This document shows positions 2,620 to 17,987 of a stretch of 64,000 nucleotides of DNA, piece by piece (positions within the stretch are counted from its first letter, which is position 1; each line of letters opens with the position of its first letter). The stretch lies in the sequence record MN850578.1, one strand, 5' to 3'. The notes under the pieces are model-generated. The model was given only the letters and a program-made list of their open reading frames with translations, searched no databases and was not told the origin of the DNA. This DNA is from Escherichia phage nomo. A program made the position numbers and the translations under genes.

Positions 2620-2810
2620 AAGTAAAGTATCTTGCTGAAGGTATGAATAGGTATTTTACCCTTGGGGAAGAATATTGGCCCTTTACAAACAACGGTGATG
2701 TCTACGTGAAAGATAATTTCGGCACGCCGTGGTTTCTGCACTCTAATGGGCTGGGATACTCCATTTACTGCGGTGCAGTGAACAACACAACTCTTGCAGA
2801 GTTCGTTTAG
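2616..2810 (+). CDS. hypothetical protein (64 aa)
   Basis: ATGA overlap with upstream ORF (translational coupling). Confidence 0.4.
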   Translation: MKVKYLAEGMNRYFTLGEEYWPFTNNGDVYVKDNFGTPWFLHSNGLGYSIYCGAVNNTTLAEFV

Positions 2811-2820
2811 AGGAGGTAGG

Positions 2821-3192
2821 ATGTTAGTAAAAGGTACCCACACAGTCAAACAACGTATTGAAGTTGAGATTGATGATTGTGAGCTGAAGCATATTTTACG
2901 GTCATGCTCCAACGTTTTGCTCCTTAGTATTCTTCAGGAGCGAGCGGAGAACGAGTTCTTAAATGCATTGGCAGGCCGTCCCGGTGACTTCTGTGTGCGT
3001 AAGCGTGGTGACAACAAGTCATGGTTGTGGGAAATCGATGCCGACTGGGATTACCACAAAAATGAGGGTATAGATGAGCCTATTCGTGAACTGACTGACA
3101 AAGAGATTCAGATGTACAATGAAGTTTGTCATTGGGCAACACGCCAACAAATTTACCTAGACCCTGTGTGGCTGATTGAAAATAGCCATTGA
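2821..3192 (+). CDS. hypothetical protein (123 aa)
   Basis: ORF with strong RBS agaggagg directly upstream of ATG at 2821. Confidence 0.45.
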   Translation: MLVKGTHTVKQRIEVEIDDCELKHILRSCSNVLLLSILQERAENEFLNALAGRPGDFCVRKRGDNKSWLWEIDADWDYHKNEGIDEPIRELTDKEIQMYNEVCHWATRQQIYLDPVWLIENSH

Positions 3193-3268
3193 CAAGAAGT
3201 AAGATTAGATATAAGATGCTTCGCACAAACAGAGTGTTGATTTTTAAATAACTAAGGAGACTGCTAAG

Positions 3269-3523
3269 ATGAAAATTACTTTGAAGTCAGAATGCGTTGC
3301 AAATGACCGAGCTTTTAAAGATTGCACAGTCGGTGCAATTTATGAAGCAGAGTTTTGTGAGAACCCTCTGGTAAAAGCCCTCCTGGAAGAAGGGGCCCCT
3401 TTATCACAAGAAGAGATCGATGAGCTGGAAAACTCAGCACAGTGCCTTACCTTTAAAGATGATGAAGGAGACTCTGTATGGTGCACTGTTAATGAAGTAG
3501 TTTTTGTAAAACCTGAACATTAA
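3269..3523 (+). CDS. hypothetical small Cys-containing protein (84 aa), paralog of 3587-3847
   Basis: RBS taaggag; shares F(K/R)DCT...DDxGDxV(W/F)CT pattern with the next ORF. Confidence 0.5.
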   Translation: MKITLKSECVANDRAFKDCTVGAIYEAEFCENPLVKALLEEGAPLSQEEIDELENSAQCLTFKDDEGDSVWCTVNEVVFVKPEH

Positions 3524-3526
3524 TAC

Positions 3527-3555
3527 TTGACAACAGTGATGGGGCCTAATATAAT
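3527..3555 (+). promoter_or_regulatory. sigma70-type promoter (TTGACA-17-TATAAT)
   Basis: Perfect -35 ttgaca 3527-3532, 17-nt spacer, perfect -10 tataat 3550-3555, upstream of ORF 3587. Confidence 0.6.
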
Positions 3556-3586
3556 GGCCCTATCAAAACGAAAGGGGACCACAGCA

Positions 3587-3847
3587 ATGACCAAACAATA
3601 CCAACGAATTAAAGCCAAGGTTAAGCCAGACTATCTGGAGAAAGACTCTGCTTTTCGGGACTGCACAGCCGACAAAGTTTACACAGGGGCTGTCCTGTTG
3701 AACGATAAACTTGAAGTAGATGTGCTGGGTAAAGAGGCCGTTATCGAGGATGACAACGGTGACTGTGTTTTCTGCACCACACGGGAGCTAGAAGTCTTAG
3801 AATACTTCGGTGAAATCTTCAACTCTTTAGACGACGAGGAAGCGTGA
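3587..3847 (+). CDS. hypothetical small Cys-containing protein (86 aa), paralog of 3269-3523
   Basis: ATG downstream of consensus promoter; RBS aaagggga; sequence similarity to preceding ORF. Confidence 0.5.
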   Translation: MTKQYQRIKAKVKPDYLEKDSAFRDCTADKVYTGAVLLNDKLEVDVLGKEAVIEDDNGDCVFCTTRELEVLEYFGEIFNSLDDEEA

Positions 3848-4236
3848 TGAAAAATATTTGGGATATTGATATCTTTGAAGCCTCTAAGCTTGACGGTGCT
3901 GATGGAGTTATTATGGTGTCTGATGGCAAGGCAACACTAACTTCCGGAGATATCATCTATGCCTTGGACGAGCTGGCGCTTCTGAAATCTACCGGTAACA
4001 CTTTAGAGGAGCGTCTTCAAGGCTTCGCCTTCAAAGAAGGCACAAATACCGCCATGATGTGCACCACACGGACAGTTCAGGTTGGTAACGGTGTCTATAT
4101 GATCATTGCGGTGTGTCCTAAATTCAGCAACGTCAATAAAGATGATGCTGACGCTGTCAACGATGTGGTTGTTCTCTTCGTAGGTGACGCTATGGCAGAC
4201 CTGATGAATGCAGGAGAAGCGGCAAATGAAGACTGA
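3844..4236 (+). CDS. hypothetical protein (130 aa)
   Basis: ORF overlapping stop of upstream gene (GTGATGA). Confidence 0.45.
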   Translation: MMKNIWDIDIFEASKLDGADGVIMVSDGKATLTSGDIIYALDELALLKSTGNTLEERLQGFAFKEGTNTAMMCTTRTVQVGNGVYMIIAVCPKFSNVNKDDADAVNDVVVLFVGDAMADLMNAGEAANED

Positions 4237-4528
4237 AAACATTACCCCAGCAGGGTTCTTAAAAGTATACCGTGAACTGCTATATACTACAGAGGACAGT
4301 GTTCTAGAGTATCCAGAATATCTTTTGCTGTATAAGTATCTGCAGGAGGCTGGTGAAAATCTGCCAGTTAGTGCAGAAGGTGGTCCGAACTGGATATACA
4401 GCGCATGGAGAAAGGTTGACATTCTCCCAGATCCAGGTAAAGATATGGTAGTTTGGCAGCTTATCAACAACATTGGGATTCCAATCTTTGATGAAGCTGT
4501 TAAAATCTATTTTGAACTTGACGATTAA
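4226..4528 (+). CDS. hypothetical protein (100 aa)
   Basis: ORF with RBS aggag upstream of ATG 4226. Confidence 0.4.
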   Translation: MKTENITPAGFLKVYRELLYTTEDSVLEYPEYLLLYKYLQEAGENLPVSAEGGPNWIYSAWRKVDILPDPGKDMVVWQLINNIGIPIFDEAVKIYFELDD

Positions 4529-4545
4529 TATCAGGAGACCTTAAG

Positions 4546-4791
4546 ATGACTGAAGTAGTTGCTCGCGCAGGACAGAAAGTACGTTGTGTTGAAGTAGGTT
4601 TTGGTGGCAAAGGGTGTCAAAACTTGACTCAAGGTAAGGAATATGCTGTTATTTCTGGTGGTGGCGACGAAAGTATTGTGTTCGAGGGCCACATCCTGGA
4701 TGCTGAAAACTTTGAAATCTTTGACGACGATGGGGATCCAATCACCTGCCTGCTGGACGGGAATTGGGGAACTTTCGAAGTGATTGGCTAA
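4546..4791 (+). CDS. hypothetical protein (81 aa)
   Basis: ORF with RBS caggag upstream. Confidence 0.45.
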   Translation: MTEVVARAGQKVRCVEVGFGGKGCQNLTQGKEYAVISGGGDESIVFEGHILDAENFEIFDDDGDPITCLLDGNWGTFEVIG

Positions 4792-4874
4792 CAAATACCT
4801 ATTGTAATTTGCAGAAGGGGATGCTAAAATAGTGTCTCCTTCTATGTTGTTCAAATAAAATCGGAGATTCCATA

Positions 4875-5240
4875 ATGGAACAAATGAACGATCAAGCGTC
4901 GGTTGCGATGAACGAGCAAGAACAACCTCAAGAATTTTTCTTAGGGTTAAGTAAAGATCAAGTGTCTCTTCTGCTAGTGCTTTCTTCTTTCATGGGAAGA
5001 CTTCAGGAGCTCACACAACAACCAGAGGCTGAACAATTATTTCAAGCTCTGCGTGAAGAAGAAAAATATCGTCGTTTGGACTATGCCTTAGGTTGGGTAG
5101 CTCAACAACGAGATATGCTGATGGCCCTCTCTGGGACCACAAGTTTTGCAATGGGGCTGTTGGCTCAAGTTCAGGACAAATTAATTCAAGCAGGGTTTGC
5201 ACACACGGCAAACACTAACGAAGAACAAGGAGACAAATAA
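4875..5240 (+). CDS. hypothetical protein (121 aa)
   Basis: ORF with RBS ggag upstream; stop overlaps start of next gene (TAATG). Confidence 0.45.
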   Translation: MEQMNDQASVAMNEQEQPQEFFLGLSKDQVSLLLVLSSFMGRLQELTQQPEAEQLFQALREEEKYRRLDYALGWVAQQRDMLMALSGTTSFAMGLLAQVQDKLIQAGFAHTANTNEEQGDK

Positions 5241-6466
5241 TGAGCGTTATTCAACAATTCGCTAACCCGATGAATCCGCGTGAAACTGTTTTACTGGCTC
5301 ACGGCATGATTAAACGTGTCAGCATCAAGCCTATCAAAGGTGCTGATCCTACAACAGGTATTAAAACCACTGTGTGGCAAGGTAAGAAAATTGAATCCAG
5401 CCACACCATCTCTTTACTGATTTCTGAACTGGATTCCTCTGATAACCTGCTTCAAGGTGGTGAAGAAGTTTGGATCAGCATGGGTGATAAGCTGCTTAAA
5501 CCTGGTCATCAAGACTCTGTCTCTGTTAAAATTGATGACAAGTGGGAAACCGTAACGCCGGGATGGATCGTAAATATTCCTTTGAAGGCAAACGAGCATA
5601 ACGGTAAGACCTATTACAAAGGCTCACTGGCTAAGATGGTCAAGCTGGGTGCAGGAGAGGCTCCAGCAGCGACTCAGCAGCAAAAACAGCAACAAGGTGC
5701 ACAATCACAAGGCCAGAAGCAGAAACCTCAGCAGAATGCCAATCAGGACGTTTTACGCATCTATGGCGATGTGACTCAGATTGTTGGCAACGTGGTTACT
5801 GTTAATGACCACAAGATTGGCGAAGGTGCTATGGTTGTAACTGATGAGCAGCTTAAAGACCTGGTGGTAGGTGGTCGTGTTGCAGCCATTGTTGACAAAG
5901 ACACCGGAAACATTATCAGTGGTTTCAAAGCCTATCCCCCTAAGGCAGAGAACGGCACTCAAGGCTCCGGTGGCAAGCGTAAATCCTCTTACGACCCTAT
6001 CGGTGTGGAAACGGGGCATAGCATCAATGCGTTGCAGATCATCCTGGATCGCGGGTTTAAGGTAGACGACCCACTGGGCGTGGCTAAAACACTGCACGTA
6101 GTCACCATTGAGCTTAAGAAAGAGTATGCTCAAGCCACCAACCGAACTGAAGATGAAGTAGGTGCCAGTGTCGGTAATGCGGTGTTGAACGCTTGTCGCC
6201 GTATTGACAAGAAAACGAAAGTTGATGATTTTGCAGCGGCAATTACTGCAGAAGCAAAAGATGTCTTGACTAATCTGGCTGAACCGTTGTACGATTGGAT
6301 CAAGAACGGTGCTGGGTCAACTGACTATCAAGAACCCCAGGCTGCCAAACAGGAAGCAGCTCCACAGCAAAACACTGTAGACGCTCCTCCTGTAAATGAT
6401 GAGGAAGATGACCCAATGGATCAGAATCCAGCACAGTATACCTTTGATGATGACATCCCTTTTTAA
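5240..6466 (+). CDS. putative single-stranded DNA-binding protein with Gln-rich linker and acidic C-terminal tip DDDIPF
   Basis: Translation ends ...YTFDDDIPF, identical to the conserved C-terminal tip of bacterial SSB; central QQQKQQQGAQSQGQKQKPQQ low-complexity linker. Confidence 0.55.
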   Translation: MSVIQQFANPMNPRETVLLAHGMIKRVSIKPIKGADPTTGIKTTVWQGKKIESSHTISLLISELDSSDNLLQGGEEVWISMGDKLLKPGHQDSVSVKIDDKWETVTPGWIVNIPLKANEHNGKTYYKGSLAKMVKLGAGEAPAATQQQKQQQGAQSQGQKQKPQQNANQDVLRIYGDVTQIVGNVVTVNDHKIGEGAMVVTDEQLKDLVVGGRVAAIVDKDTGNIISGFKAYPPKAENGTQGSGGKRKSSYDPIGVETGHSINALQIILDRGFKVDDPLGVAKTLHVVTIELKKEYAQATNRTEDEVGASVGNAVLNACRRIDKKTKVDDFAAAITAEAKDVLTNLAEPLYDWIKNGAGSTDYQEPQAAKQEAAPQQNTVDAPPVNDEEDDPMDQNPAQYTFDDDIPF

Positions 6467-6481
6467 CATCTAGTTAACATA

Positions 6482-6509
6482 GCCCTGCCCGAAAGGGTGG
6501 GGCATTTTT
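6482..6509 (+). terminator. rho-independent terminator candidate
   Basis: GC stem with GAAA loop (gccctgcccgaaagggtggggc) followed by atttttg, just after SSB-like gene stop. Confidence 0.5.
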
Positions 6510-6528
6510 GTATAAGGAGATCTGAAAA

Positions 6529-6945
6529 ATGACATTAGAAGATATCATTGTTAAGCCTGAGAACTATGACCAATACAACCTGTCAACTCAATCTGTAGAC
6601 CTTGGATGCGCCACGGTCAGTGCGTGGCTGGTTAACGGAAAAGAGCTGGATAAATGCTTAGAAGCTCACATGTCTATTAACAAGTTTCTGGATGAAAATA
6701 CTCACTGGCTTGAGGGTGCAGGCGTATATGCTTCATGGTTGGATAGTATGGGATTCGACTACCAATCTGAAGAGGGGTGGTGGAGCTATTTAGCTATCTG
6801 TCCAGAGACGCTACAATGCTTCATGAAATATTCTGAAGATTTGGAGTACCGGGCGGTGGTTGATAGTGCTATTGCCCGTTATAGCCGTAAACCTTTTTCC
6901 CACGACATTAAAACTGTGGAAGAATTTGTTGAAGTTTTCTGTTGA
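6529..6945 (+). CDS. hypothetical protein (138 aa)
   Basis: ORF with RBS taaggag upstream. Confidence 0.5.
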   Translation: MTLEDIIVKPENYDQYNLSTQSVDLGCATVSAWLVNGKELDKCLEAHMSINKFLDENTHWLEGAGVYASWLDSMGFDYQSEEGWWSYLAICPETLQCFMKYSEDLEYRAVVDSAIARYSRKPFSHDIKTVEEFVEVFC

Positions 6946-7041
6946 CACAGATTGAAAGGTGTGCAATTATAACTTCATAGAACGGGAGGACGTGATGAAC
7001 GAAGAAAACTGGGATGTATAACTAACAGGAGGCCACTGCCC

Positions 7042-7239
7042 ATGATTTATCGAATCCGTGTAAGAGAAGATGCACCAGGCTGTTACTTTGACTGGCGTGG
7101 GTGGTGGTTTATCCACCCAATGGATGGACTCACAGATAGAATGCTGGATGCTGCCCTTTACACAGATACCGACATAGAATATAATCTCTATCTGAAGGAC
7201 GGTATAGATAACGGCCTGTTTGAAGCAATTCCTGTGTAA
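7042..7239 (+). CDS. hypothetical protein (65 aa)
   Basis: ORF with RBS caggagg upstream. Confidence 0.4.
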   Translation: MIYRIRVREDAPGCYFDWRGWWFIHPMDGLTDRMLDAALYTDTDIEYNLYLKDGIDNGLFEAIPV

Positions 7240-7307
7240 GAGACTGTGATAGCTATGTTTTATGATCTTCCTGTAGCGCCACCACCTGTTGAACCAGGAG
7301 AACTAAG

Positions 7308-7733
7308 ATGATCTATGAAATGCCAAAACTGATTCGTGACGATGCCCAAAACGCTCACACCATTATTATGGGCAAACGCATGGATATTATTTGTCATAAA
7401 GATTTCTGGGAAGGAAGTTACTTCACAGAGTATTTTGGTAAACTGGACAATGGTCTGCTGATCCAGTTCTACACCGATGCGGAAAACAACATTCCCTGGG
7501 AGTTCGAAACTGAAGATGTCCATAAACTTTTCACCTTCCTCGGTATTAAGGTTAAGGCCAAGTTTGAAGAAGGTGAGTGCGACGATTGTGGATTTTATGA
7601 GGTAACAGATTTCTACCTTCCTAGCGGTAAGAACCTTTACTATGAAAGCCACTTCGGTAACTCCAATATGCCACAGTGCTGGACTGAGTTTTTTGAAATT
7701 GCGGAAGAGGAGCTGGCTTACCGTGATTATTGA
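7308..7733 (+). CDS. hypothetical protein (141 aa)
   Basis: ORF with RBS caggag upstream. Confidence 0.5.
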   Translation: MIYEMPKLIRDDAQNAHTIIMGKRMDIICHKDFWEGSYFTEYFGKLDNGLLIQFYTDAENNIPWEFETEDVHKLFTFLGIKVKAKFEEGECDDCGFYEVTDFYLPSGKNLYYESHFGNSNMPQCWTEFFEIAEEELAYRDY

Positions 7734-8181
7734 TACTGTAGAGGGGGATTTAATCTCCCTTTTTAAGAGCGGTGCTGGTCACCTGATCCACGGTTGTAAC
7801 TGCTTCCACACAATGGGCAAGGGTATAGCAAAACAGATTGCCCGTGAGTTTCCTCAAGCACTGTCAGCCGACAAAGAGACTAGATACGGTTGCCTAAGTA
7901 AACTGGGTGCGTTCTCCCGATGGGAGCACTTATCTCCGATAGGTATTGTCTACGGAATCAATCTATATACCCAGTTCTACCCAGGACCTAATGCTGAGTA
8001 TTTCTCAATCCTGAAAGGCTTTGAGCTAGTCAATGAAGTATTCAGCGGATCGACTTTACCATTCTACATCCCTAAGATCGGGTGCGGCATAGGCGGTTTG
8101 AAGTGGGAACACGTAGAGGACGTTATTAACCTTGCCACTTTCGACATAGATATTGTCGTGGTGGAGTACAAAAAGTGTTGA
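7723..8181 (+). CDS. macro-domain protein (ADP-ribose binding / processing); start codon uncertain (GTG 7723, or ATG 7642 with 92-nt overlap)
   Basis: Translation contains GHLIHGCNCFHTMGKGIAKQI, matching the conserved macro-domain core; RBS gaagaggag precedes GTG. Confidence 0.6.
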   Translation: MIIDTVEGDLISLFKSGAGHLIHGCNCFHTMGKGIAKQIAREFPQALSADKETRYGCLSKLGAFSRWEHLSPIGIVYGINLYTQFYPGPNAEYFSILKGFELVNEVFSGSTLPFYIPKIGCGIGGLKWEHVEDVINLATFDIDIVVVEYKKC

Positions 8182-8432
8182 CGACCATCTTCTGAGGTGA
8201 TATAGTTTCCACGACAACTAAGAGAGGAGAGCACTGTGGAGACTAAAATCTTAATTCTTGCTGTGGTAGATACAACCGAAGGAGCTATATTCGAATCTGC
8301 AGGAGGGTATTTCTACCTACCATACGGAAAAAGAACTTCCGAGCCAAGTAAAGATTCAATCATCAAAGTGTTCCCGTGTGCTTTCTGGCTGGAGATTTTG
8401 GTATAAGATTGCAGAGGATTTGGGAGAGAATT

Positions 8433-8627
8433 ATGAGAAACAAGAAAGAACTTTACTCCGGTGAGTGGATCAACGATCAACAGGTGGGAGAGGTAACCTG
8501 CTTCCGATGTTTTACCAGGTACAATCTTAAAACTGCACCAAAAAGTGTTCCAAAGACTGACGGTTACTACATAAAAGAACCTCATTGCCCAAAATGTAAA
8601 TGCCGATTGTACTGGAGCAATCTGTAA
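8433..8627 (+). CDS. small zinc-ribbon protein (64 aa)
   Basis: ORF with CxxC...CxxC pattern (CFRC ... CPKCKC). Confidence 0.4.
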   Translation: MRNKKELYSGEWINDQQVGEVTCFRCFTRYNLKTAPKSVPKTDGYYIKEPHCPKCKCRLYWSNL

Positions 8628-8631
8628 GAGG

Positions 8632-8659
8632 TTGACATCTGAAAACTGCAGTGTATAAT
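8632..8659 (+). promoter_or_regulatory. sigma70-type promoter (TTGACA-16-TATAAT)
   Basis: ttgaca 8632-8637 and tataat 8654-8659, upstream of ORF 8691. Confidence 0.6.
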
Positions 8660-9492: not shown

Positions 9493-9682
9493 GCTTAAAT
9501 CTGCATGGAACATCGCTGTGGGGGACGAGATCCGTATCCCAGGTGGAAAGACCATTATGAAAATATCTCGTATCGAGTACGAAGGTGATCGTGTATTTCA
9601 TATCTTTGCAGAAGATGGTCGAGAAATTTATATACAGGCAGGCTCTCACATCTATATTCGTAAGAAAGGGGAGGACAAATGA
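9485..9682 (+). CDS. hypothetical protein (65 aa)
   Basis: ATG 9485 with RBS ggaaggtg; overlaps neighbours by a few nt. Confidence 0.4.
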   Translation: MFKLKSAWNIAVGDEIRIPGGKTIMKISRIEYEGDRVFHIFAEDGREIYIQAGSHIYIRKKGEDK

Positions 9683-10008
9683 CAGAGATCATCATTTCAA
9701 CTGCAGGGTATGTATTCCTGACAATCATTGCGCTGGCTATTCTGGTGGCGGTGTATGGATTTGTTATCCTTCCTATCCTTGAGACATTTAGTTTGTGTCG
9801 GTGTTGGAGAAAAGCTTACGGTCCACAACCATGGAAGGACTGGCCCCACCTGGTGCGCTTAGCGTTCTCTTATGCTTACGATCACTCCAGTAGTGCATGC
9901 ATAACCGGATACCACGCCAACAACTGGAGCTGGGAAGGGTTGAGGAAATGGAATGTTACAAAGACCATACCTCTGCGCATGTACAAACCTAAAAACAAAG
10001 ACAACTGA
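9679..10008 (+). CDS. hypothetical membrane protein (109 aa, N-terminal TM helix)
   Basis: RBS aaaggggagg; hydrophobic segment VFLTIIALAILVAVYGFVILPIL. Confidence 0.45.
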   Translation: MTEIIISTAGYVFLTIIALAILVAVYGFVILPILETFSLCRCWRKAYGPQPWKDWPHLVRLAFSYAYDHSSSACITGYHANNWSWEGLRKWNVTKTIPLRMYKPKNKDN

Positions 10009-10039
10009 TACTTGAAAATTCCTGGCATATCAAGTATAA

Positions 10040-10500
10040 GGGGGATTTCTAAAATGGATTTCCTCCTTTTGATATTTCACCGGGCTGGATATTTTAAAAT
10101 TCTTAGAAAATCAGAAAATGGATCGAAAACTAAAATGGATTTTTCAGAGTAGGCGCGACAAGCTGAATAACTCATCCTATCGTTTGCACCATATTCCAGG
10201 CCACCATTATAGATTTCCCACACATGCTAACCTCCCTCTACTAGAACTTCCTCCACTTACCCTTGACCTTCTATGGTAACAATCTAACCGCTATCTTGAA
10301 GTTGCGGTGCAGCTTTCCAGGTACTCGATCTACTTTTCATTTCAGGGCTTGGATTTTCTGAAAATTTTTCTCGATAAATTTCTCAGTACTCGATCTGTTT
10401 TTCGTCTTCTGAATCGGATTTTCTGGAAATCGTTCCGGCTCTCAACCTGAAATTTTTGGGGACGAAATCGATTTTTCGTTTTCAGAAATGGATTTTTAAA
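10040..10500. repeat. iteron-like direct repeat region (AAATGGATTT x4; ~50-bp units GTACTCGATCT...GGATTTTCTGRAAAT x2-3)
   Basis: Direct repeats read at 10051, 10117, 10133, 10487 and tandem units 10317-10367 / 10382-10432; no ORF. Confidence 0.6.
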
Positions 10501-10610
10501 ATTTCTATATGGGAATATTTTAGTGGATACTATTTTATAGTAAATTGTTACGGAGGGTAATTAGCGTGCTAATTAAATTTATTAAATGCGAGGAGTTCTC
10601 ATTTAGAATC

Positions 10611-10629
10611 TTGAATGATAATCATTCTC
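10611..10629 (+). promoter_or_regulatory. Fur-box-like operator 1
   Basis: ttgaatgataatcattctc: 15 of 16 core positions match Fur consensus AATGATAATCATTATC. Confidence 0.55.
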
Positions 10630-10642
10630 GTTTGCAGAATAA

Positions 10643-10682
10643 CGGGCAGGCCCGGTGATTGTCTCCCGGCCCCTGTTGCCCC
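10643..10682 (+). repeat. conserved GC-rich element copy 1 (GGCAGGCCYGGTGATTGTCTCCC...CCTGTTGCCC)
   Basis: Near-identical copy in reverse orientation at 20262-20300 and diverged copy at 10787-10810. Confidence 0.5.
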
Positions 10683-10746
10683 GGCTTGTTATTATAGTAT
10701 CACACAGGACAAAGAAAGCAAGGATTTTTTTTTGCATAAATTTTTA

Positions 10747-10765
10747 AATGATAATGATAACCGTT
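10747..10765 (+). promoter_or_regulatory. Fur-box-like operator 2
   Basis: aatgataatgataaccgtt: 11 of 12 match to GATAATGATAAT half of Fur consensus. Confidence 0.5.
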
Positions 10766-11024
10766 CTCATTTTATGCAGCGCTCATCCCTGGTGGTTGTC
10801 TCCCCCGTCACCGGTGCCTGCCGTCCTTTCGATAGGTATATTGTGCCACCTGTCGGGGCCGCTGTCAACACTTTTCAAAAAATTTTTCTAACCTGATGCG
10901 CTAACCGCTGCAACCTGGCGGGGCCAGCCTGGCAGGACCTAACTGACCAGGTGGGAGAGGGTGAAATCTTGCAAACCTGGTAGGCCCATGCTGTAGGGTA
11001 AACAATTGAAGAGGAGGTACAAAA

Positions 11025-11150
11025 ATGAAAGGTAATGCTACTCACCTGGGAAATGTAGTGATTAATGATACAGAAGCGCGGGAACATAAAGAAGAGTACG
11101 AAAAAATGGTGGTTAACCTGGCGGGGGGCGGCAGGTGGATTCTATCATAA
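11025..11150 (+). CDS. hypothetical micro-protein (41 aa)
   Basis: Strong RBS gaggagg 6 nt upstream of ATG; below ORF-track size cutoff. Confidence 0.3.
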   Translation: MKGNATHLGNVVINDTEAREHKEEYEKMVVNLAGGGRWILS

Positions 11151-11247
11151 AAATAATTTAAAATAATCGTTGACAACAAGGTTAATCATGGTATTATTAC
11201 CCTACAAGGTGAACAACACCGCACTAACCAGTAAAGAGGATAAATTT

Positions 11248-11445
11248 ATGAACGCATACGGGATCAAAGTACGTCGCAACACTCGCCAGGTGGTCACCGA
11301 TCAAATGGTTTGCCAGGTGGACGTAACCATCAACAACGGGCAAGGCCTTTATAAATTCCGTCGCGGTCAGAGCTATACCCGGCAACAGCTTAATCGTTGC
11401 GCCCTGACAAAAGGACAGATCAACCACTGGTTTAATAAAAAATAA
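11248..11445 (+). CDS. hypothetical protein (65 aa)
   Basis: Promoter ttgaca at 11171; RBS aagagga upstream of ATG 11248. Confidence 0.45.
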   Translation: MNAYGIKVRRNTRQVVTDQMVCQVDVTINNGQGLYKFRRGQSYTRQQLNRCALTKGQINHWFNKK

Positions 11446-11509
11446 GTATTGACATATAGTCCGACACCAAATACACTAAAAGCACAAAAGACACTAAGAG
11501 GATAAAATC

Positions 11510-11908
11510 ATGAAAACCACTACCTTTAATTTTGATAATGCGGACTTTTCTTTTTCTGATGTCAAGAACTACCGCCGTGATCGTGGATTTTACAAGGCTT
11601 ATAATCTGGTGGGCCTGGACGATGACAATAATTTGCACGAAGTAGCTGAGATCCGGTATTATGCCGCCGCCAGCGGGAACACTCACTACTGCGTGTTTTG
11701 GATTCACGACAACAAGAACAATAAGTACGGTTATACTGGCGGCAAGGCGAGCGGTCACGGTTACGATAAAGCTAACGCAGCACTTGAGAGCGCATTAAAT
11801 GCTATGGGGATCACTGCCGACGGCTGGATCTACGAAGAAGAGTTTTTGTCGGCACTTGCTGACCACCTGGGCTATAAAAAACACATTGTAACATGCGCCC
11901 ACGAATAA
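11510..11908 (+). CDS. hypothetical protein (132 aa)
   Basis: Promoter ttgaca at 11450; RBS taagagga. Confidence 0.5.
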   Translation: MKTTTFNFDNADFSFSDVKNYRRDRGFYKAYNLVGLDDDNNLHEVAEIRYYAAASGNTHYCVFWIHDNKNNKYGYTGGKASGHGYDKANAALESALNAMGITADGWIYEEEFLSALADHLGYKKHIVTCAHE

Positions 11909-11990
11909 AAATCATTGACACGCTGCAAAATTTAAGTAAACTAGACACAAAAGGCGGGAATGTTTCCCGCCAGCACAAAGGAAAAAGATC

Positions 11991-12386
11991 ATGAATAAGA
12001 ACGTACGCCGCATCATGAACGAACTGGCAAACGATGAAAAAATTATTGATATGCATTTGGTCAACATTTGCCGCCGTTGTGTAACATATAACAACCGCGC
12101 CGCAAAAGCGTGTGAGATGAACGCAAAAGGCACCTTAAAGCCCTTTCAGGTGGTTGTAAAATCTATAACTAGCGCAGCAGGCCAGGCGCAGGACCACAAC
12201 AACGAGAGCGCTAATATTGATCCGTCTTACGTAATGAAACGGATCCGGACTTGCAAGAATAAAGAGCAGGTATATAACGTCATAGATTGGCTGGACTCCC
12301 TGGGCGATGTGGTTTACAATAGGTTTTCTGCAGCTATCGAGATCCAGCTTGACAGATTGGACGGGAAAGTACTAAAAACTTATTGA
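11991..12386 (+). CDS. hypothetical protein (131 aa)
   Basis: Promoter ttgaca 11915; 5' stem-loop ggcgggaatgtttcccgcc; RBS aaaggaaaaag. Confidence 0.5.
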   Translation: MNKNVRRIMNELANDEKIIDMHLVNICRRCVTYNNRAAKACEMNAKGTLKPFQVVVKSITSAAGQAQDHNNESANIDPSYVMKRIRTCKNKEQVYNVIDWLDSLGDVVYNRFSAAIEIQLDRLDGKVLKTY

Positions 12387-12387
12387 G

Positions 12388-12434
12388 TTTATTTTTAGAT
12401 GGCCTTGACACCAGGGCCATCAATAAAGTAAACT
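12388..12434 (+). promoter_or_regulatory. repeated ~47-bp promoter/palindrome element, copy 1
   Basis: tttatttttagatggccTTGACAccagggccatcaataaagtaaac; inverted repeat gatggcc/ggccatc flanks -35. Confidence 0.5.
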
Positions 12435-12466
12435 AACCACAGTTGAGCGGAAAAGGAGGCTTAAAG

Positions 12467-12586
12467 ATGAGCACTACACGCCAGCACACAAAGGTAACCA
12501 TCATCGTTTGCATCATTGGGTACATCCTGGCGCAAATGTTGATGGGTAGCGCCAACGGTGTCGCAAAATTTTTCTTAAACTTTTAA
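12467..12586 (+). CDS. small hydrophobic peptide (39 aa, one predicted TM helix)
   Basis: RBS aaaaggagg; translation MSTTRQHTKVTIIVCIIGYILAQMLMGSANGVAKFFLNF. Confidence 0.3.
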   Translation: MSTTRQHTKVTIIVCIIGYILAQMLMGSANGVAKFFLNF

Positions 12587-12665
12587 TTGACAAGCTAACT
12601 TAAATCGATATAATAAGCACATAAACGGGAAAACTTCCCAGAACACACAAAAGGAGAAAAACACC

Positions 12666-13007
12666 ATGACTACTATGACCGCCTCAGAAAAAGCTATGCA
12701 GATCGCTGAACTGAAAAAACAGATCGCAGACCTTGAGAATAAGATCGATAACTTTGAAATCGACGAGGACAAGTACGACGAAAACTATGATGAATGGTTA
12801 GACGAGATCTACGGAGAAATTATGATCGGAAACATTTCTTTTCTTCCGTCGCGTATCCTCAAGGAGCTAGATCCTATCGCTTACCGCTGCGGATTTAGCG
12901 ACTACATCGACAGCCTGGATATTGAGGACGATGAAGAATACCAGGAATTACAGACAGAGTTAGAAGAAGCAAAAGAAGAGCTTGCGGAGCTGGAAGAAAA
13001 CGAGTAA
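12666..13007 (+). CDS. hypothetical acidic protein (113 aa)
   Basis: Promoter ttgaca 12587 with tataat; RBS aaaggag; highly acidic, coiled-coil-like. Confidence 0.5.
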   Translation: MTTMTASEKAMQIAELKKQIADLENKIDNFEIDEDKYDENYDEWLDEIYGEIMIGNISFLPSRILKELDPIAYRCGFSDYIDSLDIEDDEEYQELQTELEEAKEELAELEENE

Positions 13008-13009
13008 GC

Positions 13010-13054
13010 TTATTTTTAGATGGCCTTGACACCAGGGCCATCAATAAAGTAAAC
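13010..13054 (+). promoter_or_regulatory. repeated ~47-bp promoter/palindrome element, copy 2
   Basis: Identical to 12388-12434 over about 45 nt. Confidence 0.5.
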
Positions 13055-13096
13055 TTTATACTGTTAACACTGAACTAATGCATAGGAGTTAAAACC

Positions 13097-13342
13097 ATGG
13101 CAGCACTAATCACCAAATATTATGCCCCTACCAACACCAAAAGCGCCCGTATCATGGTAAAAGGCTTCGGACGTAAAAAGGTGTACACCTGGGATTATGC
13201 CTTAGACACGGAAGACAACTACACCAACGCAATGACCGATTTTATTAATGAACTAAATAAGCAGATCTTGACAAGTTATAAAGTGACTGATATTGCTTAT
13301 ATAGGTGAAGGCGGGATCTGTTTTGTAGGCATTGTGAAATAG
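13097..13342 (+). CDS. hypothetical protein (81 aa)
   Basis: ORF downstream of repeated promoter element; RBS ataggag. Confidence 0.5.
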   Translation: MAALITKYYAPTNTKSARIMVKGFGRKKVYTWDYALDTEDNYTNAMTDFINELNKQILTSYKVTDIAYIGEGGICFVGIVK

Positions 13343-13416
13343 TTATTTTTTCGGTGGTCCTGGCTGCAGGGCCATCTATAAAGATAATTTATCAACACCA
13401 TGAAAGGAGAAAGTAC

Positions 13417-13770
13417 ATGATCAGCGGGGCTAGTTTTATTATTGGCGCTATTGCTACGGCTTTAATTGTAAACAAGATCCAATCTAAAAACGAAAAAGAT
13501 AGCAACGCGCTCACAGAATACCCATTTTGGGTATTCAACGACAACGAAGACTACATAATCAAGTACAAAGATGAGAGAGGCGACCAGGTAACACCGCGAC
13601 CGATCCCAGCTTACAAGATGCAGGAAACACTATACCGCCTAAAGGCCGGAGGCGCAAAGATCGTAGACTTTTGGGGATATGATTGCAAGGATCAGGAGGT
13701 CATAAAACGTCGTATCCGGGCGATTCAGGCAAATATTGAAATTAGTAAAGGGGAAATTTATGAAAATTAA
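13417..13770 (+). CDS. hypothetical membrane-anchored protein (117 aa)
   Basis: RBS aaaggag upstream of ATG 13417; N-terminal hydrophobic helix. Confidence 0.45.
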   Translation: MISGASFIIGAIATALIVNKIQSKNEKDSNALTEYPFWVFNDNEDYIIKYKDERGDQVTPRPIPAYKMQETLYRLKAGGAKIVDFWGYDCKDQEVIKRRIRAIQANIEISKGEIYEN

Positions 13771-13957
13771 TTTCGAAAAAATTGTAAAGCGCCCCCACGA
13801 TTCCGAAGAGCTGCCGGAACGCCGCCAGCGTAACAATAAACTGAATAAACCGAAAAGGTTCGGGAAGATCTGGAGGAATCACTATGATCGCAAATTACCG
13901 GGCCTGCTTTTGGAACGTGAACGACAGGCGGAACGATACCGCCACAAAGGCAAATAA
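13760..13957 (+). CDS. hypothetical basic protein (65 aa)
   Basis: RBS aaagggga; Arg/Lys-rich translation. Confidence 0.35.
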   Translation: MKINFEKIVKRPHDSEELPERRQRNNKLNKPKRFGKIWRNHYDRKLPGLLLERERQAERYRHKGK

Positions 13958-13963
13958 CAACCA

Positions 13964-13994
13964 ACGCCCCGCCATTGTGCGGGGCTTTTTATTT
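13964..13994 (+). terminator. rho-independent terminator
   Basis: Hairpin gccccgccattgtgcggggc followed by tttttattt. Confidence 0.6.
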
Positions 13995-14127
13995 CTATCC
14001 TACGAATAGCGCCCCTGGTTGGCACCACAAACGCCACAAAAGCCCCTACCTATGCAATCCCCTTTCTTAGCCTGAAAACATCACCCAGGACCGTTTTATG
14101 GTGTTAAAAATATCTTTTATTTAAAGC

Positions 14128-14156
14128 TTGACACCTTGGAATCGCCTGGATATACT
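14128..14156 (+). promoter_or_regulatory. sigma70-type promoter (TTGACA-17-TATACT)
   Basis: ttgaca 14128-14133, tatact 14151-14156, upstream of ORF 14192. Confidence 0.55.
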
Positions 14157-14191
14157 AACCACATCAAAGCAAGAAGAAAGGAGTAAACGCC

Positions 14192-14452
14192 ATGCGTAAA
14201 TTAAAAAATTTTGATAAAGTCGATGTTGTCCTGAATAATTTTTACTACTGCAATAATAAGGCCGTTTGGTGGCGTGATAGTTCCACCGATAAAGTTAAAG
14301 CGCGCTTTCTCCAGGGGCACTGGCAAGGCCGCCCAGTGATTAAGATCCGGGGGCAATTGGTAGCGTTTAAAAATTGCCGCCGTGTTGATGACGTTGAAGA
14401 GATTCTAAACATTTTACGCCACAATAATTTAAAAAATAGTGTTGACAAGTAA
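14192..14452 (+). CDS. hypothetical protein (86 aa)
   Basis: RBS aaaggag upstream. Confidence 0.5.
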   Translation: MRKLKNFDKVDVVLNNFYYCNNKAVWWRDSSTDKVKARFLQGHWQGRPVIKIRGQLVAFKNCRRVDDVEEILNILRHNNLKNSVDK

Positions 14453-14526
14453 GCCTCAATAAGTATACTTAAACACACAGGCGGGAAAACTTCCCGCCAC
14501 TAACAAAGAAAATAGGAGAAAATATC

Positions 14527-15150
14527 ATGACCACCGTTAACATTACCGCAGGTTACAATTTATCTTTCGACGTGCTGACCGACGAACAAAAAGAAAAAGC
14601 CGTTGAAATGGTCCGCGAAAGAGAAGAACACAGCGGGGATAACTTTTTTGCAGAAAGTGTAATTGAATACTATAAAGAATATGTTTTTCCAGAGTATGGC
14701 CTTGAAGATACCGAAGTACATTGGTCAGGCTTTTGGTGCCAGGGTGACGGCGCGTCAATCAGTGCTGAAAACGTGGATTTAGAAAAATTTTTGCGTAAAG
14801 TAAAGGCCCTGACCAAGTTCCGATCAATTCGTCACTTGTTCGGCACAATGCACGATGGCGAGTTATCAGCCAGTGTTGAGCGTGATCCATATAGCCGCTA
14901 TAGTCACGAAAACACTGTAAGCGGATACATTGATACCACCTGGCTAGATCTGACCGCCAAACAAGAAAACAAAGTGGAAGACTTGGAAGAGCTGATCACC
15001 GAGACGGTACGGGAGCTATCCCGCAAGGTTTACGTAGACCTGGAGGAGGCCTATCTTGAACAGTTTACTACCGAAAACCTGATCGGCCTTATTGAGGCCA
15101 ATGATTGGCGGTTTGATGTGGATGAATATGGCGAGATGACTTTTTCATAA
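14527..15150 (+). CDS. hypothetical protein (207 aa)
   Basis: Promoter ttgaca 14442; 5' stem-loop ggcgggaaaacttcccgcc; RBS aataggag. Confidence 0.5.
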   Translation: MTTVNITAGYNLSFDVLTDEQKEKAVEMVREREEHSGDNFFAESVIEYYKEYVFPEYGLEDTEVHWSGFWCQGDGASISAENVDLEKFLRKVKALTKFRSIRHLFGTMHDGELSASVERDPYSRYSHENTVSGYIDTTWLDLTAKQENKVEDLEELITETVRELSRKVYVDLEEAYLEQFTTENLIGLIEANDWRFDVDEYGEMTFS

Positions 15151-15239
15151 ATAAAGTGTTGCAATAACCTAAAAACCTGCTATATTAAAACTCAAGGGGG
15201 CAAGACGTTTGCCCCACACAAAACAAAGAGGAAAACATT

Positions 15240-15620
15240 ATGAAAAACACTACCAAGGCTATTGACACCGTTATGTTTAACCTGGTTACATTCCGTGAAG
15301 ATATGAAAGATCTTCCACGTGAAACAGTGTGCGATCACATTGAAAACTATCGCAAACTAATCAAAGAGTTGCCCCTAAAACGTGACCAGTATGCGGCTAA
15401 CGCTATGCTCAACGCCATGATCAAAAAGATGATCCAGTGTGATTTAACCCTGGCCTATGACTATGCGGGTGGTCGTTTTGCAGTATACAATCAGCCCGTG
15501 CCCGGTATGGGCACCACCGAAGAATTGCACGCGCTCAATCTAAAACAAGACGTATGGGATAACATGCCCCGCGTGGTGGTGTGGGCAGAAAGCGGAAAGA
15601 TTTACGGCGATAATTTTTAA
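15240..15620 (+). CDS. hypothetical protein (126 aa)
   Basis: 5' stem-loop ggggcaagacgtttgcccc; RBS aaagagga. Confidence 0.5.
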   Translation: MKNTTKAIDTVMFNLVTFREDMKDLPRETVCDHIENYRKLIKELPLKRDQYAANAMLNAMIKKMIQCDLTLAYDYAGGRFAVYNQPVPGMGTTEELHALNLKQDVWDNMPRVVVWAESGKIYGDNF

Positions 15621-15684
15621 TCAGGTAACAGGCGGCATATTTGCCGCCTTATTGTTAAACAGAACTGCAAAAGAGGTACATAGA

Positions 15685-16056
15685 ATGGAATTTATTATTT
15701 TGGCTGTAGTAGTTGCCTTGTTCAACGCCTGGATCGCTGGCAAGATGGGTAGATCCGCCTTTTTATGGTTTATTATATCTATTTTCCTGGGGGTGGTTGC
15801 AACTATTGTACTTGTTATCCTTGCAATTGTTGACAAGGGGAATAATAGAAAGGGTAAAGTATTTTCAGACCTGTACGACGCTCAAACGTTTGTCAACGCC
15901 TATTATAGTGATCTTCCAGTCTCCCTACGCTGCAGCCTGGCACAACAAGTTTTCGATGAGGCTAAAACCAGAGATCAAGCCCATGAGATATGTTTAACTG
16001 AGGCGGATCGCCTATTTGAGAGGAATAGAAAATATGTGGGCCAACCGTTTAAATAA
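15685..16056 (+). CDS. hypothetical membrane protein (123 aa, two predicted TM helices)
   Basis: RBS aaagagg upstream of ATG 15685; hydrophobic helices. Confidence 0.45.
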   Translation: MEFIILAVVVALFNAWIAGKMGRSAFLWFIISIFLGVVATIVLVILAIVDKGNNRKGKVFSDLYDAQTFVNAYYSDLPVSLRCSLAQQVFDEAKTRDQAHEICLTEADRLFERNRKYVGQPFK

Positions 16057-16541
16057 TGCCACGTTAATTAATCCCTTTAGTGAAGATTTGAAGCCAGCCG
16101 CCTGGCGTGATGGATTCAATAACGAACGCTTTATTTTCAAGCCTGATCTTGAGGAATTTTATAACAATGGATCGAACAACGACAGAGATAATTTTTCTTG
16201 TGGTGTGCGTAGTGATGGTACTCCTGGGGGCCATTGTAAACCACGTCGCTACTAACAGGGGGAAAGGGGGAGACGATGACACCCAAGGATAAGCCCCGCA
16301 CCGATAAGGCGCGCCGTGTTATGGTATGGCTTGAGATCATCGCCCTTGAAATATTGTTAGGGGTAGGGATGTACTTTATCGCTGTAAGTAACTAAGAACG
16401 GCCCCCCGATCATGGGGGCCTATCTTTAAAAAAAAAAAAAATTCTTCCGGGGTGTTGCAATCCGGTCCGGAATGTGGATAATAACAATCAACGGGGAGAC
16501 ACTCCCCACCGCATAGACAAAGTTCCAAAAGGAGAAACAAA

Positions 16542-16742
16542 ATGAGCAACAATATCCGCGTTATTAACTTCAAAAAAGAAGAAAAAATTGCCGTGCTGAT
16601 TGACGGTCAAGAAATCTTTAAAGGTGATTATGAAGATCATCAAACGGCGATTAGTATCACTCGCGTGATTGGTTACCATAATTTTTACCCTCAAGGCGCT
16701 GAGGCAGCAGTAAAACGAATTAAAGAGATTGTAGGCCTGTAA
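16542..16742 (+). CDS. hypothetical protein (66 aa)
   Basis: Promoter ttgcaa-17-taataa; RBS aaaaggag. Confidence 0.5.
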   Translation: MSNNIRVINFKKEEKIAVLIDGQEIFKGDYEDHQTAISITRVIGYHNFYPQGAEAAVKRIKEIVGL

Positions 16743-16743
16743 A

Positions 16744-16790
16744 ATTTATTTTTAGATGGCCTTGACTCCAGGGCCATCAATAAAGTAAAT
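16744..16790 (+). promoter_or_regulatory. repeated ~47-bp promoter/palindrome element, copy 3
   Basis: tttatttttagatggccttgactccagggccatcaataaagtaaat; one mismatch in -35. Confidence 0.5.
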
Positions 16791-16833
16791 TTAAACCCTG
16801 TTAAAATAATCAGTGCAAAAAGGAGTAATGATC

Positions 16834-17133
16834 ATGTTTATCCAGGCTAATAATCTTTATTTCTTTGATGGTCAGATCGTAGACGGCGTGGAGGTGGAAA
16901 TCACCGGGTGCCCTGGCGGTCAGGTTATGACTTTTCGGAATAATGCCTTTGATGATTCTCATATCGTTATGAGAATGGAAGTTAGTAAGCTGGATGACAA
17001 GAAAACACTTATCGACTATTCCGTCAAAGATCATCCAGACTACCACATGATCTATGGTGATTTGTGCATTGTTGACCGTGACAAGGTGGGCGGCATTGTG
17101 ATCGCTATTGTGAACGATGTTTTCTCAAACTAA
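16834..17133 (+). CDS. hypothetical protein (99 aa)
   Basis: RBS aaaaaggag about 8 nt upstream of ATG 16834. Confidence 0.45.
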   Translation: MFIQANNLYFFDGQIVDGVEVEITGCPGGQVMTFRNNAFDDSHIVMRMEVSKLDDKKTLIDYSVKDHPDYHMIYGDLCIVDRDKVGGIVIAIVNDVFSN

Positions 17134-17150
17134 TTTCAGCAGGTGATTTT

Positions 17151-17501
17151 ATGAAAGTAAAACTATATTACCTTAATGAGCTTAACCCCCTTGCCCAGGT
17201 CCGCGCCCTGGCTAATACCTTGATTTGTGAGAAATCTGTATATTGTGTTGAGCTTAACGCCATGCGTGAACGTCTCAAAGGTGGTTACTTTGACATCCAT
17301 GCTGCAATCAACGGCCTGAATATAGAATTTATCCGCTTACGTAACAGCCGCCAGAATCTGGCAAGAATGGAACAAGATCCGGCCCACCTTCGTAAGCTGG
17401 TTATTGAAAATCATCTGATGTTTAATGCCGATGGTGATTATTACCATTTTCACCGTAAACGCTGGTACCGTGGCGGCAATACAGGCAAGAATGCAAAATA
17501 A
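17151..17501 (+). CDS. hypothetical protein (116 aa)
   Basis: ORF with RBS caggtg upstream; hairpins follow the stop. Confidence 0.5.
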   Translation: MKVKLYYLNELNPLAQVRALANTLICEKSVYCVELNAMRERLKGGYFDIHAAINGLNIEFIRLRNSRQNLARMEQDPAHLRKLVIENHLMFNADGDYYHFHRKRWYRGGNTGKNAK

Positions 17502-17702
17502 GGCCCCAGGCAGGGCCTGCAGCGATATAATCACATAAAGGCTATGCGGTTGCATGGCCTTTATTATTTTAGCGTTACAGCGGCCCCAAGGCGCTTAAAA
17601 AATTTTTAAAGAAGTACTTGCATCAAGTCCTACAATATGGATAATAGGACGTGTCAGGGGGGCGGCCCCCAATCATTAACCGGATAGATAGGAGTTAAAA
17701 TC

Positions 17703-17987
17703 ATGGCTATTGTCACCGTTGGCGATGTAGTGGAAATGGAAGCAAAATACTTAAAAGCGGGTATGCATATCCTACGGAATGATCAAGAATTGTTATTAAC
17801 GATGGTAGACTATAATCCCGGCCAGGATTATCCAAGCATCGACTACTTTTTTGAGTATGTTGATGAAGAATTGAAAGAGGATGAGGCTTATCAGGGTGAA
17901 TTCTGCAATTTCTTTTGCCCTGATGAGGTTGTAAAAGTTATCTATCAACCTGGAGTACCTTTCCCGCTGCACGCTATCAATAAATAA
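17703..17987 (+). CDS. hypothetical protein (94 aa)
   Basis: Promoter ttgcat 17615; 5' hairpin gggggcggccccc; RBS taggagt. Confidence 0.5.
   Translation: MAIVTVGDVVEMEAKYLKAGMHILRNDQELLLTMVDYNPGQDYPSIDYFFEYVDEELKEDEAYQGEFCNFFCPDEVVKVIYQPGVPFPLHAINK

Follow-up and report, generated by a model that had tools for sequence, protein, structure and literature searches.

A conserved single-copy repeat array in a gene-free gap of Escherichia phage nomo as a probable protein-binding element and a possible replication origin

We analyzed a stretch of 64,000 nucleotides from Escherichia phage nomo (MN850578.1), referred to as the window herein, and found that a gene-free gap near its 10-kb position holds an array of three consecutive repeat units accompanied by a distal block of related motifs. 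The pattern of conservation supports strong purifying selection on this array. Judged from its sequence, it is very probably a cis-acting element to which a protein binds sequence-specifically, forming a complex of fixed size. Of the functions that such a complex might serve, that of a replication origin (or of its protein-loading part) comes first in our ranking, though only tentatively; a transcriptional boundary with an upstream control module is nearly as likely. The window comes from a Vequintavirus (rV5-like coliphage), and the 3 kb around the array are 99.7% identical to Escherichia phages nomine and vB_EcoM_HdK5. The same 3 kb match 123 phage records, nearly all of them Vequintavirus (rV5-like myoviruses of ∼137 kb). 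The 5′ end of the window falls inside the DNA polymerase gene, after which come a long + strand block of small open reading frames (ORFs) and a strand switch near 22 kb; the DNA polymerase and primase-helicase genes lie on the same strand, 8-13 kb upstream of the array. The phage also encodes adenine methyltransferases and iron-dependent ribonucleotide reductases. The ORF-free gap itself (10009-11024, ∼1 kb) is flanked by + strand ORFs at 9679-10008 and 11025-11150, and its annotation is inconsistent, with short ORFs that differ between GenBank annotators or none called.

The three units start at 10321, 10386, and 10460 and have in common a 36-bp core, GTACTCGATC-N7-C-N∼12-AnCGnATT, which carries two boxes, Box A and Box C, ∼2.5 helical turns apart. 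A repeat search returned them as a 47-nt family of three copies (10311, 10376, and 10450) with 68-72% identity and a spacing of 65 and 74, while Tandem Repeats Finder did not call the units. GTACTCGATCT is exact at 10321 and 10386, as is GGATTTTCTGRAAAT at 10351 and 10416. The Vequintavirus form of Box C, which reads AnCGnATT elsewhere, is AAATGGATTT, and it recurs in the distal block (10049-10145). An earlier note on this DNA, made without database searches, had counted AAATGGATTT four times; we found exact copies at 10052, 10133, and 10486 only, and the supposed fourth is a near copy, either AAATCGATTT at 10465 or AAATGGATC at 10116. The latter variant (10116-10124) includes GATC. The note had further described two to three tandem units of ∼50 bp. 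Two units are indeed exact and a third is degenerate; the period, however, is 65/74 bp, and a ∼45-bp stretch is the conserved part of the unit. The repeats do lie in gene-free DNA where the note had placed them, they rise above shuffled sequence, and two units carry the exact form it described.

As for that statistical support, the best 47-nt direct repeat has 34 matches, compared with a mean of 25.9 and a maximum of 30 in 300 dinucleotide shuffles of the gap. Shuffles restricted to the local AT-rich segment reached a maximum of 31. When AWYGGATTTT was searched with ≤1 mismatch on both strands, 6 of the 19 matches in the window fell inside 444 bp, all on the + strand, against an expectation of ∼0.13 for 444 bp (binomial p ∼1e-9, by hand arithmetic). 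All same-orientation copies in this noncoding DNA, namely the three units and six Box C-type motifs, are on the + strand. The compound unit is single-copy in a search of the complete ∼138-kb phage nomine genome and the window. The features of the region are collected in Table 1.

Table 1. Features in and around the repeat array (window coordinates)
Feature	Position	Strand	Description
Inverted repeat	10007-10039	+	8-9 bp stem and 14-nt loop; immediately follows the stop codon of ORF 9679-10008; fold -8.9 kcal/mol, z -0.8
Distal motif block	10043-10147	+	AAATGGATTT-type motifs at 10052-10061, 10116-10124, and 10133-10142; GATATTT at 10071-10077 and 10088-10094
Spacer	10148-10320	+	∼170 bp; least conserved part (∼0.80 identity), length kept
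Unit 1	10321-10385	+	Box A GTACTCGATC, TTTTC, Box C TTGGATTTTCT, GAAAATTTTT
Unit 2	10386-10459	+	Box A GTACTCGATC, TTTTC, Box C ATCGGATTTTCT, GAAATTTTT
Unit 3	10460-10520	+	Degenerate in Vequintavirus; GGGACGAAATCGAT in place of Box A; Box C AATGGATTTTT kept
A+T-rich stretch	10487-10586	.	GC 0.23; only two other 100-bp stretches of the window melt more easily
18-bp palindrome TAATTAGCGTGCTAATTA	10558-10575	.	Inside the A+T-rich stretch; perfect in several relatives
Sigma70-like promoter TTGAAT-N18-CAGAAT	10611-10640	+	Fur-box-like palindrome overlaps the -35 hexamer and spacer

Conservation across relatives indicates that the array is under selection. We used alignments of 7 vequintaviruses for pairwise identity, 29 units aligned without gaps across genera for the unit core, and 11 lineages for geometry; the latter comprise Vequintavirus, Seunavirus, Mydovirus, and Certrevirus together with IMG/VR contigs that were added by a pattern scan. 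Within Vequintavirus, the repeat blocks show a mean pairwise identity of 0.95-0.99, equal to coding DNA or higher, and the distal block shows 0.91-0.99, compared with ∼0.80 for the spacer. The array is kept in 121 of 121 Vequintavirus-type records. Across genera, blastn recovers the promoter core only. In Salmonella phage PVP-SE1, Klebsiella phage Seu621, Pectobacterium phage DU_PP_IV, and Pantoea phage F5M2A, a repeat search of the corresponding gap returned three units each, and these start with G(T/G)(A/T)CTCGATC. The invariant columns over the 29 units are G1, C4-C10 (CTCGATC), C18, G31, A33, and T35. Identity between units is 0.64 within a genome and 0.59-0.62 between genera. Since units of the same genome resemble each other no more closely than units taken from different genera do, the triplication is old rather than a product of recent slippage, with each copy held by selection. 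We had expected each unit to match its positional counterpart in other genera best, but the numbers (0.62 vs 0.59) do not show such orthology.

The geometry of the region is also conserved. In 11 of 11 lineages there are exactly three units, with a span of 138-143 bp from unit 1 to unit 3 in which the middle unit shifts. GATATTT repeats are found 236-320 bp upstream of unit 1 in every one of these lineages, the block being placed 236-254 bp upstream though the spacer sequence differs. A sigma70-like promoter with a Fur-box-like palindrome, TTGAATGATAATCATTCTC at 10611-10629, lies downstream of the repeats, as the earlier note had stated. Every lineage with Box A has this Fur-box promoter downstream of the array, at a distance of 115-157 bp from unit 3 (11/11 lineages), in steps that reflect one to four Fur-like palindromes at 29-30-bp intervals. 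Because the distance to the distal block is fixed and that to the promoter is variable, the array behaves as a self-contained module. Even in L110, a distantly related Aeromonas-type contig, this promoter is preceded by two Box A-like repeats. In Phapecoctavirus the GATATTT block and the promoter are retained around a different A/T-rich 2 × 138-bp repeat, which is the pattern expected if the repeats co-evolve with a phage-encoded binder. Overall, the motif distribution tracks phage phylogeny and not host, as the motif is absent in E. coli Phapecoctavirus and present in Pectobacterium Certrevirus. We found no published description of the array in the Vequintavirus, rV5, and PVP-SE1 literature searched, although the PVP-SE1 genome paper may mention it. 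The Certrevirus CB7 paper describes sigma70-like early promoters only.

Several identities of the array could be eliminated. The earlier note had seen no coding capacity, and our results agree: there is no conserved ORF, frameshifting 1-nt indels separate close relatives, and six-frame tblastn to other genera gave matches in every frame. Rfam returned no match at the gathering threshold for the window and six related loci, and at E ≤ 1 over 9900-11300 it returned nothing except a chance-level match outside the repeats; no tRNAs were found. RNAalifold yielded 0 consensus pairs over the 29 units, whose fold z is ∼0; together with the absent Rfam match, this led us to reject a detectably structured noncoding RNA and type III antitoxin repeats. 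No match to the array was present in 5,426 E. coli genomes, which rules out a host or plasmid source, and the sole "plasmid" match is a phage genome. DnaA, IHF, and Fis have no consensus at a conserved position in the 11 lineages. An element that is single-copy and noncoding, and that lacks a conserved RNA fold, an Rfam match, or one of these host-factor consensus sequences, is best read as a cis-acting protein-binding array.

While we infer protein binding to the units from these features, the proposal that the complex serves as an origin is speculative. The three units and the distal block would form a single-copy array of sites for one sequence-specific DNA-binding protein, which would recognize two boxes at their separation of ∼2.5 helical turns, namely G(T/G)(A/T)CTCGATC as Box A and AnCGnATT as Box C (here GGATTTT). 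A complex of fixed size, ∼140 bp, would assemble on the array, after which the neighboring A+T-rich DNA (10487-10586) may open, and the early promoter 115-157 bp to the right may supply transcriptional activation or a primer, a role proposed for T4 oriE and shown at origins of other lytic phages. We rank an origin first because the array is single-copy and deeply conserved, its geometry is tied to the distal block rather than to the promoter, its boxes combine GATC with a T-run, both meltable DNA and an early promoter are nearby, and other repeats take its place in the sister subfamily while the promoter stays. In Box A, GATC is invariant and is followed by the T-run. The adenine methyltransferases of the phage and the upstream DNA polymerase and primase-helicase genes add to this origin-like context. 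GATC-bearing repeats are known in oriC and P1 oriR, where the oriC 13-mers and the P1 oriR 7-mers contain GATC in T-rich repeats. Iteron origins such as lambda ori, P1 oriR, and those of R6K/RK2 have an A+T-rich neighbor, and the lambda layout has a palindrome beyond it. The array resembles these origins in its same-orientation repeats and, in this genus only, in a meltable neighboring stretch with a palindrome beyond, and differs from them in that its units are longer, irregular, and only three, without a neighboring initiator or DnaA/IHF sites. Iterons have also been described for RepA_N replicons (PMC7145576).

A number of observations weigh against an origin at this position. The spacing of the units is irregular and not in helical register (65/73-74 bp here, 74-78/63-67 bp in other genera), and short phased repeats of about 12-22 bp are absent, the units being composite 36-bp cores. 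No initiator or DNA-binding gene is recognizable beside the array, the only initiator-labeled protein being 52 kb away, and none of the 10 ORFs flanking the array has a Pfam domain. In three genera an ORF of ∼275 aa without a known function abuts the module, and it has no Vequintavirus homologue. The missing DnaA, IHF, and Fis sites belong here as well. In other genera the A+T-rich DNA beside unit 3 is not conserved; its counterparts in PVP-SE1, Seu621, and DU_PP_IV are not notably A+T-rich. From left to right across the gap, mean GC skew (1-kb windows, by hand arithmetic) goes from 0.128 to 0.070 and AT skew from 0.073 to 0.139, a step opposite in sign to that of the leading strand right of a bidirectional origin; skew follows transcription in these phages. 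The rV5 genome paper, in which an origin was sought by skew analysis, likewise reports that skew switches only at transcription switches. The earlier note had called the array iteron-like and typical of origins or regulator binding arrays. Its same-orientation noncoding repeats, purifying selection, and meltable neighbor fit that description, whereas the irregular long units and the lack of an initiator or of DnaA/IHF sites do not. In the way it would work, the element comes closest to an iteron array; given several such differences from classical iteron origins, it should not be filed in that family.

A second region of the same window bears on this question. At 62293-62643 lies a gene for a winged-helix protein of 116 aa with HTH_36 and DUF6945 matches just under the Pfam cut-offs; the protein falls in PHROG 12838, labeled "replication initiation protein," and is annotated in GenBank as that or as "transcriptional regulator." About 70 bp downstream of this gene are three semi-palindromic repeats, TGTCCG-N5-CGGACA, at 21-22-bp spacing (62719-62778), which are unique in the window. 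The adjoining 62779-62878 is the most A+T-rich 100 bp of the window (GC 0.19). By its sequence, this 62.3-62.9 kb module would be a more textbook arrangement of Rep gene, iterons, and DNA unwinding element than the 10-kb array, and it fits the iteron origins better. The presence of this better canonical candidate weighs against an origin at 10 kb. The winged-helix protein is confined to Vequintavirus, whereas the 10-kb array is subfamily-wide, like the replisome genes.

Origins of lytic phages offer two further comparisons. Some depend on transcription, including T4 oriF/oriG, the T7 primary origin, and the lactococcal c2/sk1 origins. These may share with our locus a noncoding setting in the early area, an early promoter of the host type, an untranslated transcript (predicted here), A+T-rich DNA, and independence of a dedicated initiator. 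Their unwinding element, however, is downstream of the promoter, while here the repeats and the A+T-rich stretch are upstream. An A+T-rich patch does occur ∼80-120 nt downstream of the promoter (10722-10765); the repeats, however, remain upstream of it. A precedent is T4 oriE, where direct repeats ("iterons") near repEA/repEB are conserved and the origin requires an early promoter; the function of these iterons is unproven, without a demonstrated link to origin activity (PMC3016281), which is at the same time a point against reading our repeats as an origin. Both T4 oriE and the array are direct-repeat clusters in the early region of large virulent myoviruses whose genomes are circularly permuted; both are syntenic in relatives and lie next to an early-type promoter. 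Unlike the array, T4 oriE has evenly spaced 12-nt repeats, compared with three 36-bp cores at 63-78-bp spacing and a distal block 240 bp away.

Close behind the origin, and likewise tentative, is a transcription boundary with an upstream control module. As a boundary, the spacer would load Rho and, together with the hairpin and T-tail of unit 3, stop read-through from the polymerase-side genes. As a control module, the units would bind a phage or host regulator, for example a nucleoid protein, which would determine when or how strongly the Fur-box promoter is active, possibly by looping to the distal block. The constant order of array and promoter in all lineages, including the Box A-like repeats of L110, favors such a role, as do the one to four Fur-like palindromes between them, which make these 300 bp look like a continuous regulatory region. 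The existence of a better origin candidate elsewhere in the window points the same way. On the other hand, it is the distance to the distal block and not that to the promoter that is fixed, and the units are too distant for UP-element or class I/II activation. The rrnB P1 promoter has three Fis sites and an UP element, and ftnA shows an interplay of Fur and H-NS. Both are comparable to the array, in which several putative protein sites and A/T tracts lie upstream of a conserved promoter with Fur-box-like operators. They differ in that the array has no Fis consensus, its sites are 115-300 bp upstream at variable distance, and its core fits no tested host-factor consensus.

The features expected of termination are similarly mixed. 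The spacer is C-rich and G-poor (C 33-35%, G 8-13% over 10151-10300) and resembles a Rho-loading (rut) site on the predicted + strand RNA. The excess of C over G is +12 to +17 per 50 nt in Vequintavirus and +6 to +13 in most other genera, and it is absent in Seu621 and F5M2A; the C-rich patch is weak or absent in Mydovirus and one Certrevirus. One hairpin directly follows the upstream stop codon, and another lies in unit 3. At the position equivalent to the former, phage EduardKellenberger has another, stronger hairpin (-19.6, z -4.3). The latter is a 16-bp hairpin with a T-rich tail that overlaps unit 3 (10452-10489; -15.9 kcal/mol, z -2.2, three G-C pairs), and substitutions in relatives, read by eye, preserve its pairs. 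Of all units, those of other genera included, only this one qualifies, and weakly, as an intrinsic terminator; the hairpins of the units contain A-U pairs alone, and shuffled sequence folds just as well. An invariant 36-bp core across genera with different hosts moreover exceeds the needs of termination. The earlier note had suggested a boundary between middle-gene and early blocks. The base composition of the + strand genes does shift across the gap, which is in line with a boundary; strong sigma70-like + strand promoters, however, lie on both sides (1877-8632 and 11170-18755), and hence the gap is not simply the start of the early region. Lastly, AnTn tracts and an exact TCGATAAATT in unit 1 (10371-10380), which we take to be the H-NS high-affinity motif, suggest curved DNA prone to H-NS binding and would be compatible with upstream control.

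The same tracts and motif raise a distinctly less probable explanation, namely an architectural element of the host nucleoid, in which probably curved DNA is bound, nonspecifically or semi-specifically, by H-NS/StpA, Fis, gyrase, or SeqA (at methylated GATC) and organizes or marks the phage chromosome without acting as an origin or promoter operator. Tracts of the GAAAAAATTTTT type end most units outside Certrevirus, the H-NS-like motif is exact, and the constant span of ∼141 bp suggests wrapped DNA. GATC is invariant in Box A, with a second GATC 20 bp downstream in 11 units by our own count; this second site, however, is often AATC or AAAC. Certrevirus units lack the AnTn tracts and keep the 36-bp core, no Fis or IHF consensus is at conserved positions, and the motif follows the phylogeny of the phages rather than their hosts. 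A more ambitious combination seems improbable to us: the array, the Fur-like palindromes, and the promoter would act as one origin/early switch whose geometry is fixed and which goes back to the ancestor of Vequintavirinae and of their relatives among Aeromonas phages; in it, a putative phage-encoded binder and host Fur would gate a primer or activator transcript and thereby couple the start of replication to iron status.

Quite improbable, too, is an element that acts as RNA, whether a structured noncoding RNA, antitoxin-like repeats of the phiTE pseudo-ToxI type, or a short peptide gene. Transcription from + strand promoters farther upstream probably extends through the region, which no strong terminator precedes, and a relative does carry an RNA repeat locus (phiTE, PMC3475682). 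ToxI and the pseudo-ToxI of Certrevirus phiTE are like the array in being a noncoding repeat locus in a phage of the same subfamily. The phiTE locus, however, is elsewhere, next to tRNA genes and the terminase and not in the array module. Antitoxin repeats are 34-40 nt and near-identical, whereas our units are 65-78 nt and only ∼64% alike, and the units show no RNA-structure signal. ToxI-type repeats were thus rejected as the identity of the array on the basis of locus, lengths, and fold signal, and the absent Rfam match, consensus pairs, and conserved ORF speak against the other RNA-level forms. The least probable reading is a packaging (pac) or recombination site with the repeats serving a small terminase or a recombinase: single-copy DNA with three repeats and an invariant GATC has a layout resembling the lambda cosB R sites and the GATC hexamers of P1 pac, but the large terminase gene is ∼58 kb off in phage nomine; rV5, PVP-SE1, and phiTE are reported to be circularly permuted; and record ends are scattered, with 2 of ∼120 records breaking inside the gap at different points, so that a genome end or pac site was rejected.

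Downstream of the array, the DNA around the Fur-box promoter has conserved features of its own. The palindrome TTGAATGATAATCATTCTC agrees at 15 of 19 positions, counted by eye, with GATAATGATAATCATTATC, which we take to be the Fur consensus. In other subfamilies and in Aeromonas, Acinetobacter, and Enterobacter phages, blastn matches to the gap are confined to the promoter and the ∼35 nt after it (…GAATAACGGGCAGG..CGGTGATTGTCTCCCGG, 10611-10700; loci L009-L014 and L107-L110), at 72-87% identity. A possible hairpin after the promoter (variable GC stem, loop GTGWTTGTCTC) is not recovered by RNAalifold, and its stem register varies. We also observed a conserved minus-strand sigma70-like promoter, TTGACA-17-CACAAT with TG (10840-10868), directed leftward to the Fur-box promoter, which suggests possible convergent transcription over ∼190 nt. 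In Seunavirus, Mydovirus, Phapecoctavirus, and PhAER-3, the corresponding position carries an annotated minus-strand ORF of ∼60 aa, of which no counterpart was seen in the window; the PVP-SE1 and Seu621 copies encode similar peptides, MEN.KV.TSETMVTL.TWE…, as translated by eye. The 93-aa hypothetical ORF called in many records (10615-10896) sits on the promoter and GC-rich module, which is conserved in all six frames, and is probably not a gene.

Further downstream, AACCTGGCGGGG is exact at both 10912 and 11115. Five CCWGG (Dcm) sites, found by eye, occur within ∼80 nt in 10905-11000, a segment that is variably deleted in vequintaviruses (identity 0.54 at 10929-10968). Phapecoctavirus, Mydovirus, Seunavirus, and Certrevirus (L009-L012) have a conserved …GCAAGCGTCTTTACAnnTCTTTACAAA…CTACCGGCGATCCACCTTCC…GCCCCGCCTTTTCGCCGTGGGGTGGCG… segment about 100-250 nt downstream of the Fur-box promoter, for which we found no obvious counterpart in the window and no Rfam match. 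In PVP-SE1, DU_PP_IV, and PhAER-3, the module is directly preceded by genes of the homing-endonuclease type (HNH; CapR/T5orf172); in ESCO5 such a gene lies two genes upstream, and in a Klebsiella phage an HNH gene is annotated across the promoter core.

The gap is not the only ORF-poor part of the window. The rV5 genome paper mentions one ORF-free region, 104013-106618 ("no ORFs"), which by coordinate arithmetic appears to be a different region, at ∼20-24 kb of the window. There we found an ORF-poor, A+T-rich strand-switch region (∼20300-23800; GC 0.35 at 21-22 kb) with an exact 20-nt direct repeat at 21668/21899 and a perfect 18-nt inverted repeat at 21701/21835; it is probably the "non-coding" box of that paper. 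Database records also call for two remarks. Between 16 and 18 GenBank MG0656xx records are named "Campylobacter phage" (host C. jejuni) and are 92-100% identical to this coliphage over the regions searched; these are probably mislabeled or contaminant assemblies. The PLSDB entry CP057073.1, a 137,565-bp circular "plasmid" of E. coli RHB39-C03 without a replicon type, is an rV5-like phage genome with 92.7% identity over the repeat region, which points to a carrier state, pseudolysogeny, or contamination of a bacterial assembly.

Phages of the rV5 type belong to the coliphages that are isolated most often, and their use in therapy and typing is widely considered. Our analysis delimits a single-copy, subfamily-wide cis element to its invariant nucleotides and adds a second, classical candidate at 62.3-62.9 kb. 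For a specialist, a candidate origin or control hub in this much-used group is unlikely to come as a surprise. For genome engineers, the "empty" DNA of the array is not a place for deletions or insertions. If the binder is phage-encoded, it would constitute a new protein/DNA recognition pair. An array that instead serves as a boundary or regulator would be a rare case, in a virulent phage, of an upstream control region with such deep conservation.

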